This document shows positions 54,664-55,074 of a DNA stretch of 58,445 nucleotides, one piece after another. The translations under genes and the position numbers were made by a program. Location of the stretch: the UHGV virus genome UHGV-0021275; one strand, written 5' to 3'. The DNA comes from a virus. Every line of letters starts with the position of its first letter. Position 1 is the first letter of the stretch. The notes under the pieces are model-generated. The model ran no database searches, was not told the DNA's origin, and saw only the letters and a program-made list of their open reading frames with translations.

Positions 54664-55074
54664 GTGAAAGAACTGAAACAATTGCGAAAAGCTGGTCTGC
54701 ATGTTGTGGACAGTGCACCGCTGTTTCGATGTGGTTATTTTGTGTTTGCATATAGTTTGGAACAGTGGGAAGCCTTATGTAAAGAGCTGCATGTAGATGT
54801 TCCGGTTTCGGATGGTGCGTGTGGTGTTTCGCAAGCCTTTTCGCGCAATGCGCAGCTACTTTATGCTATTGGTGTCTTTAATGGTGGGCTGGACACGCTG
54901 GTTCATGAGTGCGCCCACACCGCGTTTAAGTTCTGTCACGACGTCGGTGTGGAGGTCGCGTGTGCGCGAGCGAACGAGACATACTGCTACTTGCTTGACT
55001 GGTTGTTTGGTGAGGGCGTTAAAGGAAATCGCGCAGTGTTCAAGTCCTGTGTGGAAGAGCCGGGAGGTAAATAA
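54664..55074 (+). CDS. Small HExxH-motif protein (possible zincin-like metallopeptidase)
   Basis: 136 aa with LVHECAHTAF (H-E-x-x-H). GTG start assumed. Confidence 0.45.
   Translation: MKELKQLRKAGLHVVDSAPLFRCGYFVFAYSLEQWEALCKELHVDVPVSDGACGVSQAFSRNAQLLYAIGVFNGGLDTLVHECAHTAFKFCHDVGVEVACARANETYCYLLDWLFGEGVKGNRAVFKSCVEEPGGK

Follow-up and report, generated by a model that had tools for sequence, protein, structure and literature searches.

What does a protein of 136 residues with an isolated HExxH motif do among the virion genes of a phage? This question is raised by the UHGV virus genome UHGV-0021275, a stretch of 58,445 nucleotides which was analysed over its whole length and which is called the window below. 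An original prediction, made without database searches, had noticed there an open reading frame (ORF) coding for such a protein, with the single motif HECAH, between a paralogous structural pair and the downstream structural genes, and had proposed a minimal zincin-like peptidase, possibly a maturation protease of the prohead or of the ejection proteins. The ORF list and the sequence bear out the ORF and its motif (Table 1), and the placement is also correct: the two paralogues are 34.5% identical (E 1e-36) and both match phrog_37635. We find that the protein is very probably zincin-like, and we tentatively favour the reading in which it is a stand-alone mini metallopeptidase of the gluzincin type, acting in trans on the internal and ejection proteins of the phage or travelling with them.

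The motif occurs only once in the window among all six-frame ORFs of at least 60 residues, and its chance expectation is about 0.0035 per protein of 136 residues. The protein matches phrog_1365 (E 1.2e-23, residues 25-118), and it is 51% identical to HkcC of phage HK620 over residues 19-114 (E 4e-22) and also 51% identical to an unannotated ORF of P22; judged by its sequence, it belongs to the PHROG 1365 / HkcC family. An exhaustive profile search gave 742 cluster representatives of this family at E<=1e-3. Nearly all of the 150 members listed are stand-alone proteins of 100-216 residues (the longest has 283) and none carries a precomputed Pfam domain, while neither fused nor multidomain members came up in a second, word-indexed search of proteins. 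HExxH is present in 161 of 166 retrieved proteins, the exceptions being fragments or frameshifts apart from one HKAAH. Among the full-length members H81, E82, H85 and E105 are invariant (152/152), as they are in the wide alignment (A3), which was too divergent for pattern scanning; G54 (151/152), Y109 (149/152), C108 (130/152) and N104 (106/152) are conserved to lesser degrees. The expectation that the motif should be kept by homologues is hence confirmed. Scanned against IMG/VR, the patterns of the family gave 80 P22-like prophages, which were redundant, and no added diversity. Searches of Pfam, NCBIfam and PADLOC gave no match for the protein of the window, and our literature searches gave no study of the function of hkcC or of the small SprT-like proteins of phages. 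The family, already catalogued though uncharacterised, is a modest novelty as a solo, minimal version of the metallopeptidase (MPTase) theme of phages.

We then considered the fold. The AlphaFold2 model of the protein (predicted local distance difference test, pLDDT, 86.9; predicted template modelling score, pTM, 0.83) consists of a strand (residues 25-29), a helix (32-42), a hairpin (54-61/64-71), a helix which bears HExxH (76-94) and a last helix (100-121) which begins with NETYCY. The invariant motif is thus carried by a helix. In gluzincins the third zinc ligand is a glutamate of the next helix, some 18-30 residues downstream, and E105, at the start of helix 100-121 and 20 residues past H85, is such a residue; the third ligand which a structure prediction was expected to provide therefore has an invariant candidate. 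Gluzincins such as thermolysin have this spacing of 20 residues and the same "NE" context. The order of the elements is also that of the zincin-like MPTase core of polyvalent proteins (PMC5512222). At E<=1e-3, a Foldseek search of BFVD gave only small phage proteins, 17 in number and with TM of at most 0.77; few matches have a name, and these, some of them weaker than E 1e-3, are called SprT-like, Metalloprotease, PolyVal Metallopeptidase superfamily or IrrE N-terminal-like. With the PDB as the target, no match fell below E 0.29, and none of the fold matches was convincing.

The sequences point in the same direction. When the family profile was run against the PDB sequences, 12 of the 12 chains found at E<10 were zincins (myroilysin, astacin-type) or the HExxH region of the virion RNA polymerase (vRNAP) of phage N4. 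Pfam SprT-like (PF10263) was matched by 43 of 149 members, below its curated threshold (best E 1e-4, most near 0.1), and the protein of the window has no match to it at E<=10. Aligned with hhalign to 11 N4-like vRNAP C1 domains, the family reached a probability of 85% (E 6e-6, 55 columns) over the strand, the backing helix, the hairpin and the HExxH helix; with the single N4 sequence the probability was 74.5%. Pfam MPTase-PolyVal was not among the family matches listed for the 149 members. The assignment as a zincin is well supported because of these links to PDB chains, to SprT-like proteins and to N4 C1. Hence, of the minimal zincin-like peptidase first proposed, the invariant motif, the candidate ligand E105 and the topology stand, but a convincing fold match in the PDB does not. 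We infer zinc binding and catalysis as follows: the zinc ion would be coordinated by H81 and H85 of the HExxH helix and by E105 of the helix which follows; E82 would activate a water molecule; Y109, which lies a helical turn past E105, may stabilise the transition state; and the beta-hairpin (residues 54-71) would form the edge strand which binds the substrate.

The gene itself is real. The ratio of nonsynonymous to synonymous substitution rates (dN/dS) is 0.11 against the 71%-identical homologue of L003, an E. coli-associated contig, a value for which dS is near saturation; this means that the ORF is under purifying selection. The N-terminus MKELKQLRK is kept in homologues at 60-90% identity. 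The stop codon TGA of the upstream gene lies at 54658-54660, the GTG start follows 3 nt later, and the TAA stop shares bases with the ATG of the next gene at 55074. The gene is hence tightly packed in its operon, and it is translationally coupled within what is an ejection operon. A consensus scan for promoter-like and terminator-like sites around it gave no excess over shuffled sequence.

Which proteins accompany it? From 5' to 3' the order is a phrog_511 protein, a 149-residue ORF, the two paralogues, the HExxH gene, a 242-residue ORF, a lysozyme-like gene and a giant gene, and this order is the same in L003, with proteins 50-87% identical. The zincin-like protein would thus be co-translated with internal virion and ejection proteins, and it most likely acts in trans on the delivered proteins or accompanies them. 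Four independent contexts of the family adjoin ejection, internal or MuF-type genes (the window and L003, L128, P22 and HK620, and L119). This link to delivered proteins is recurrent, in a sample of only a handful of lineages.

The giant protein is of particular interest here. After the circular join of its two parts it has 2300 residues, and its identity to the 2318-residue giant of L003 is 58.5% over the full length. Among the LPD38 giants the N- and C-terminal regions are shared and the centre is variable. The giant of the window has no HExxH, HDxxH or HExxxH; like that of L003, which is also devoid of HExxH, it has a YkuD-like domain instead, and in both genomes the solo zincin gene is present. 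In the closest syntenic relatives, L125 and L126 from IMG/VR, the solo gene is absent and the giant has HEFEH after a strand-like segment. Giants with HExxH in cis and no solo gene nearby were also found in L129, L130, L132, L133, Pmp11 (Pasteurella), YL1 (Ralstonia) and PA28 (Stx phage). Virions of phi24B contain its LPD38 giant in abundance, and this protein has a metallopeptidase domain (bioRxiv 10.64898/2026.04.10.717836), and Iyer et al. (PMC5512222) proposed that MPTase domains process polyvalent proteins or act as effectors. The solo zincin would then supply the peptidase function which homologous LPD38 giants carry in cis and which the giant of the window lacks. In this modified form, the ejection-protein maturation protease of the original prediction is a possible reading and the one which we prefer.

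Several observations weigh against this reading. When the solo family was aligned with hhalign to the HExxH domains which the PA28, YL1 and Pmp11 giants carry in cis, the probability was at most 2.5%. A functional substitution would consequently be an analogy and not a gene fission, as no similarity between the solo and in-cis forms is detectable; an origin of the solo gene by fission of the MPTase of a giant protein, which we considered, was rejected as no sequence similarity supports it. The complementarity is also imperfect: the giant of Vibrio phage D96a is found with neither an in-cis HExxH nor a solo form. L128 has the solo gene and 95-98% identical L129, L130 and L132 have in-cis domains; the percentages refer to the internal virion protein, and in these three the zincin gene is absent. 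As the L128 contig stops 300 bp past its zincin gene, the giant of L128 is unseen. Most family members occupy slots unrelated to ejection proteins: after the lysis genes and before the terminase, between TerS and TerL, or in early and accessory clusters by Tad2-like or Acb2/Tad1-like genes. An intact solo copy in E. coli lies between an insertion sequence (IS) fragment and a SPATE gene. Finally, hkcC is listed as of "unknown function" (PMC2629481).

The slots of the family are indeed diverse. In P22 and HK620 the gene comes right after the ejection genes 7-20-16, on the strand of the late operon, in the "ant moron"; in other P22-like phages and in mEp044 it lies between the lysis genes and the small terminase, in L090 between TerS and TerL, in a T7-like phage of Ralstonia where the late region ends, in an N4-like phage of Pseudomonas as the first of a cluster of small genes, and in L119 after the portal, abutting a MuF-like gene. 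These variable slots, together with the presence or absence of the gene among near-identical prophages, mean that it behaves as a mobile accessory gene, usually in late operons, and does not belong to the morphogenetic core.

This behaviour suggests the main rival explanation, which we judge rather unlikely: the protein would be a moron effector against the host or competing phages, for instance an anti-defence or superinfection peptidase, which takes no part in the processing of proteins of the phage itself, and the ejection operon would be one insertion slot of many. Not only the changing position and the presence and absence among 95-98% identical prophages argue for it, but also the neighbours, since the gene adjoins a Tad2-like gene in L092, is near an Acb2/Tad1-hairpin gene in L089 and stands beside sieA in the "ant moron" of P22 (PMC2629481). 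The intact orphan copy on IS-flanked E. coli DNA fits as well, and Iyer et al. (PMC5512222) allow host proteins as targets of MPTases. However, neither PADLOC nor any known anti-defence family is matched, expression from a late operon is unusual for an antagonist of defence unless it is packaged, and two anti-defence adjacencies among about 15 contexts may be due to chance. The complementary pattern with giants which have HExxH in cis is left unexplained by an effector.

A role at the cell wall is improbable. The protein would then be a peptidoglycan peptidase which helps the ejection apparatus to cross the wall, together with the lysozyme-like protein and the YkuD-like domain of the giant. 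The lysozyme-like gene is adjacent in two lineages, phrog_28672 ("metallo-endopeptidase") matches this lysozyme-like neighbour, and such a role has been proposed for the metallopeptidase domain of phi24B gp47 (bioRxiv 10.64898/2026.04.10.717836). The 136-residue protein itself, however, has neither a signal peptide nor a membrane segment and no similarity to the M15 and M23 cell-wall families in Pfam and PHROGs, and most family members are not near lysozymes. With the lysozyme-like neighbour as bait we obtained unrelated endolysin-type loci, among them five lysozyme relatives with no nearby zincin.

About as improbable is a protein of another kind, either a peptidase cleaving repressors in the manner of ImmA/IrrE or a HExxH protein which is not a peptidase (similar to the alpha-ketoglutarate-dependent, aKG-HExxH, oxygenases, or with a structural metal site). 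The P22 homologue lies in the immI region, BFVD gave a weak match to an IrrE N-terminal-like protein (E 0.13), and TIGR04267 gave weak matches (E 0.02-0.17). The scores of the latter are 11.9-14.9, to be compared with a cut-off of 40 bits; Peptidase_M78 (PF06114) is not among the families listed for the 149 members; there is no adjacent gene for a helix-turn-helix repressor, the neighbours in the window being virion proteins; and the ORFs scanned, a part of those in the window, include neither an integrase nor a repressor. The invariant downstream glutamate fits a gluzincin.

The prohead or scaffold maturation protease is ruled out for practical purposes by the behaviour of the family as a mobile accessory gene: although the protein is the only HExxH protein of the genome and, as the original prediction had said, no protease family was found among the head-module ORFs scanned, the gene lies about 8 kb downstream of the capsid gene (a distance which had already been noticed), its slot varies, it is absent from L125 and L126, which have the same head module, and from the near-identical prophages L129-L132, and P22 carries a family member though P22-type heads mature without proteolysis. 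To our knowledge, the known prohead proteases are of the serine or assemblin type and not zincins.

If we return to the peptidase acting on, or travelling with, delivered proteins, a broader and bolder version can be formulated, which as a whole we think unlikely: HkcC/PHROG-1365 proteins would be an unrecognised class of solo minimal MPTases, packaged in virions and injected, which act in trans to cut giant or ejection proteins or to destroy a barrier protein of the host or of a prophage, and which are evolutionarily interchangeable with in-cis HExxH domains. Were the protein an active peptidase on or with ejected proteins, a function would be provided for a family found in hundreds of phage lineages, including P22, whose hkcC has been "unknown" for decades, and the protein, small and soluble, would serve as a model of the zincin-like domains of N4 vRNAP and of the LPD38 giants of Stx phages. 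Were it an ordinary accessory gene, the consequence would be a routine change of annotation, from "hypothetical protein" to "putative zincin-like metallopeptidase".

How does the protein compare with the closest known systems? HkcC of HK620 and the P22 ORF are small stand-alone proteins in which HECAH and NETYCY are conserved, but HkcC, with its 121 residues, does not have the C-terminal insert of 12 residues seen in the window clade, and its gene belongs to the "ant moron" of a temperate phage of the P22-like type, where it adjoins sieA or hkcB, whereas the gene of the window lies between internal virion genes. The polyvalent MPTase (Iyer et al. 2017) and N4 vRNAP C1 (residues 2124-2375) share with the model of our protein three strands, an N-terminal helix, a HExxH helix and a Glu helix; they also share its context of late genes and virion-delivered proteins, and the "ALNEFMAW" of N4 resembles by eye the "NETFCYLL" of the family. 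The polyvalent domains are, however, embedded in proteins of 2000-3500 residues and have long inserts between the two helices, whereas the window protein is a bare 136 residues and all listed members of its family are solo; the profile match to N4 C1 covers only the N-terminal half of the protein. The C1 subdomain of N4 has been solved and its HExxH noted, with no function assigned or catalysis demonstrated (PMC13434306).

SprT-like proteins (SprT, Spartan/Wss1) form the only Pfam family matched by many members, and some database records of homologues are named "SprT-like family protein". Spartan and Wss1 have a third histidine shortly after HExxH, whereas the conserved downstream ligand of the present family is a glutamate only, and there is no zinc-ribbon or DNA-binding region. 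Minigluzincins and mini-zincins are soluble zincins of about 100-120 residues, such as proabylysin and Acel_2062, the latter being an Asp-zincin (HExxHxxGxxD). The window protein is similar to them in size and in the idea of a minimal scaffold, in which a HExxH helix is followed by a ligand-bearing helix; they differ in being cellular proteins, not products of phage accessory genes, and no sequence or fold-search match to them was obtained.

Table 1. Features of the zincin-like gene and of its operon in the window (stop codon included in the end coordinate of the zincin-like gene).
Feature	Coordinates	Strand	Basis
Zincin-like protein gene, 136 aa, GTG start	54664..55074	+	ORF list, homologues, dN/dS
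Putative Shine-Dalgarno-like GGGGG, 8-nt spacer to GTG	54651..54655	+	read from sequence
H81-E82-C83-A84-H85 codons (CAT GAG TGC GCC CAC), HExxH; proposed two zinc ligands and catalytic base	54904..54918	+	sequence, conservation
N104-E105-T106-Y107-C108-Y109 codons, "glutamate helix"	54973..54990	+	conservation, model
Internal virion protein, 548 aa, same operon	50754..52400	+	phrog_511 "internal virion protein", E 2e-88
ORF of 149-181 aa between internal virion protein and paralogous pair	52411-52860 (or 52315-52860)		no family match
Paralogue 1 of structural pair, 277 aa	52862..53695	+	phrog_37635 / phrog_8003
Paralogue 2 of structural pair, 316 aa, directly upstream of zincin-like gene	53710..54660	+	phrog_37635
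Protein of 242 aa, ATG overlaps zincin-like stop codon	55074..55802	+	no family match
Lysozyme/transglycosylase-like protein, 228 aa	55815..56501	+	phrog_17230 E 1e-51, phrog_90 E 2e-39
Giant "polyvalent" protein, N-terminal part, ORF passes window end	56506..58445	+	in-frame circular join
Giant "polyvalent" protein, C-terminal part	2..4963	+	LPD38 E 3e-16, YkuD E 1.5e-5 (Pfam)

The ORF of the giant protein leaves the window at its end and resumes in frame at position 2. The window is a complete genome, circularly permuted. It encodes a replication set of its own (primase/helicase, helicase, DNA polymerase and exonuclease) and the structural and packaging proteins TerL, portal, capsid protein and SU10-type adaptor. 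The portal is about 26% identical to those of Rhizobium phages, and for the region no near-identical DNA was found in phages or in E. coli genomes; the phage is without a close cultured relative. Lysogeny is not indicated, given that the scanned ORFs include neither integrase nor repressor.

Among the neighbours, the internal virion protein has homologues in L003, L091/L128 and L125-L134, and single-sequence scans with it against genome and metagenome collections gave no match. The ORF which follows it is kept in L003 (75%) and in L125/L126 (28%), and the 242-residue protein is conserved in L003 and weakly in L125/L126. In L091/L128 the lysozyme-like homologue directly precedes the zincin-like gene, which in L128 occupies 14075-14491.

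Some further observations concern individual copies of the family gene. In L092 (7729-8570) it comes directly after the Tad2-like (PF11195) gene, and in L089 (3877-5286), a contig unrelated to L092, it is the third gene after the Acb2/Tad1-hairpin (PF24729) gene. In N4 itself (L094) gp49, at 4004-4486, is a DUF2829 (Tad2-like) protein, whose gene is convergent with the vRNAP gene (4524-15026) and faces its 3' end, the part coding for the C-terminal domains, among them the HExxH C1 subdomain. The intact E. coli copy, at 359-811 of L135, is of the window clade, with 61% amino acid identity and unaltered catalytic residues, and lies alone between a fragment of an IS3-type transposase and a Peptidase_S6 (SPATE) gene, and a truncated copy of 82 residues (L100, 10001-10249) stands beside transposases on plasmid-like contigs. 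In one P22-like group the zincin is preceded by a 395-residue protein with a weak C-terminal match to DUF1737 (L005, 6811-7998), which is not adjacent to it in the other contexts. In P22, the hkcC homologue lies between sieA and orf59a, in a reading frame which matches that of HK620 hkcC, and the record NC_002371 has no coding sequence annotated over it (L002 5001-5285, that is 13903-14187 of the record).
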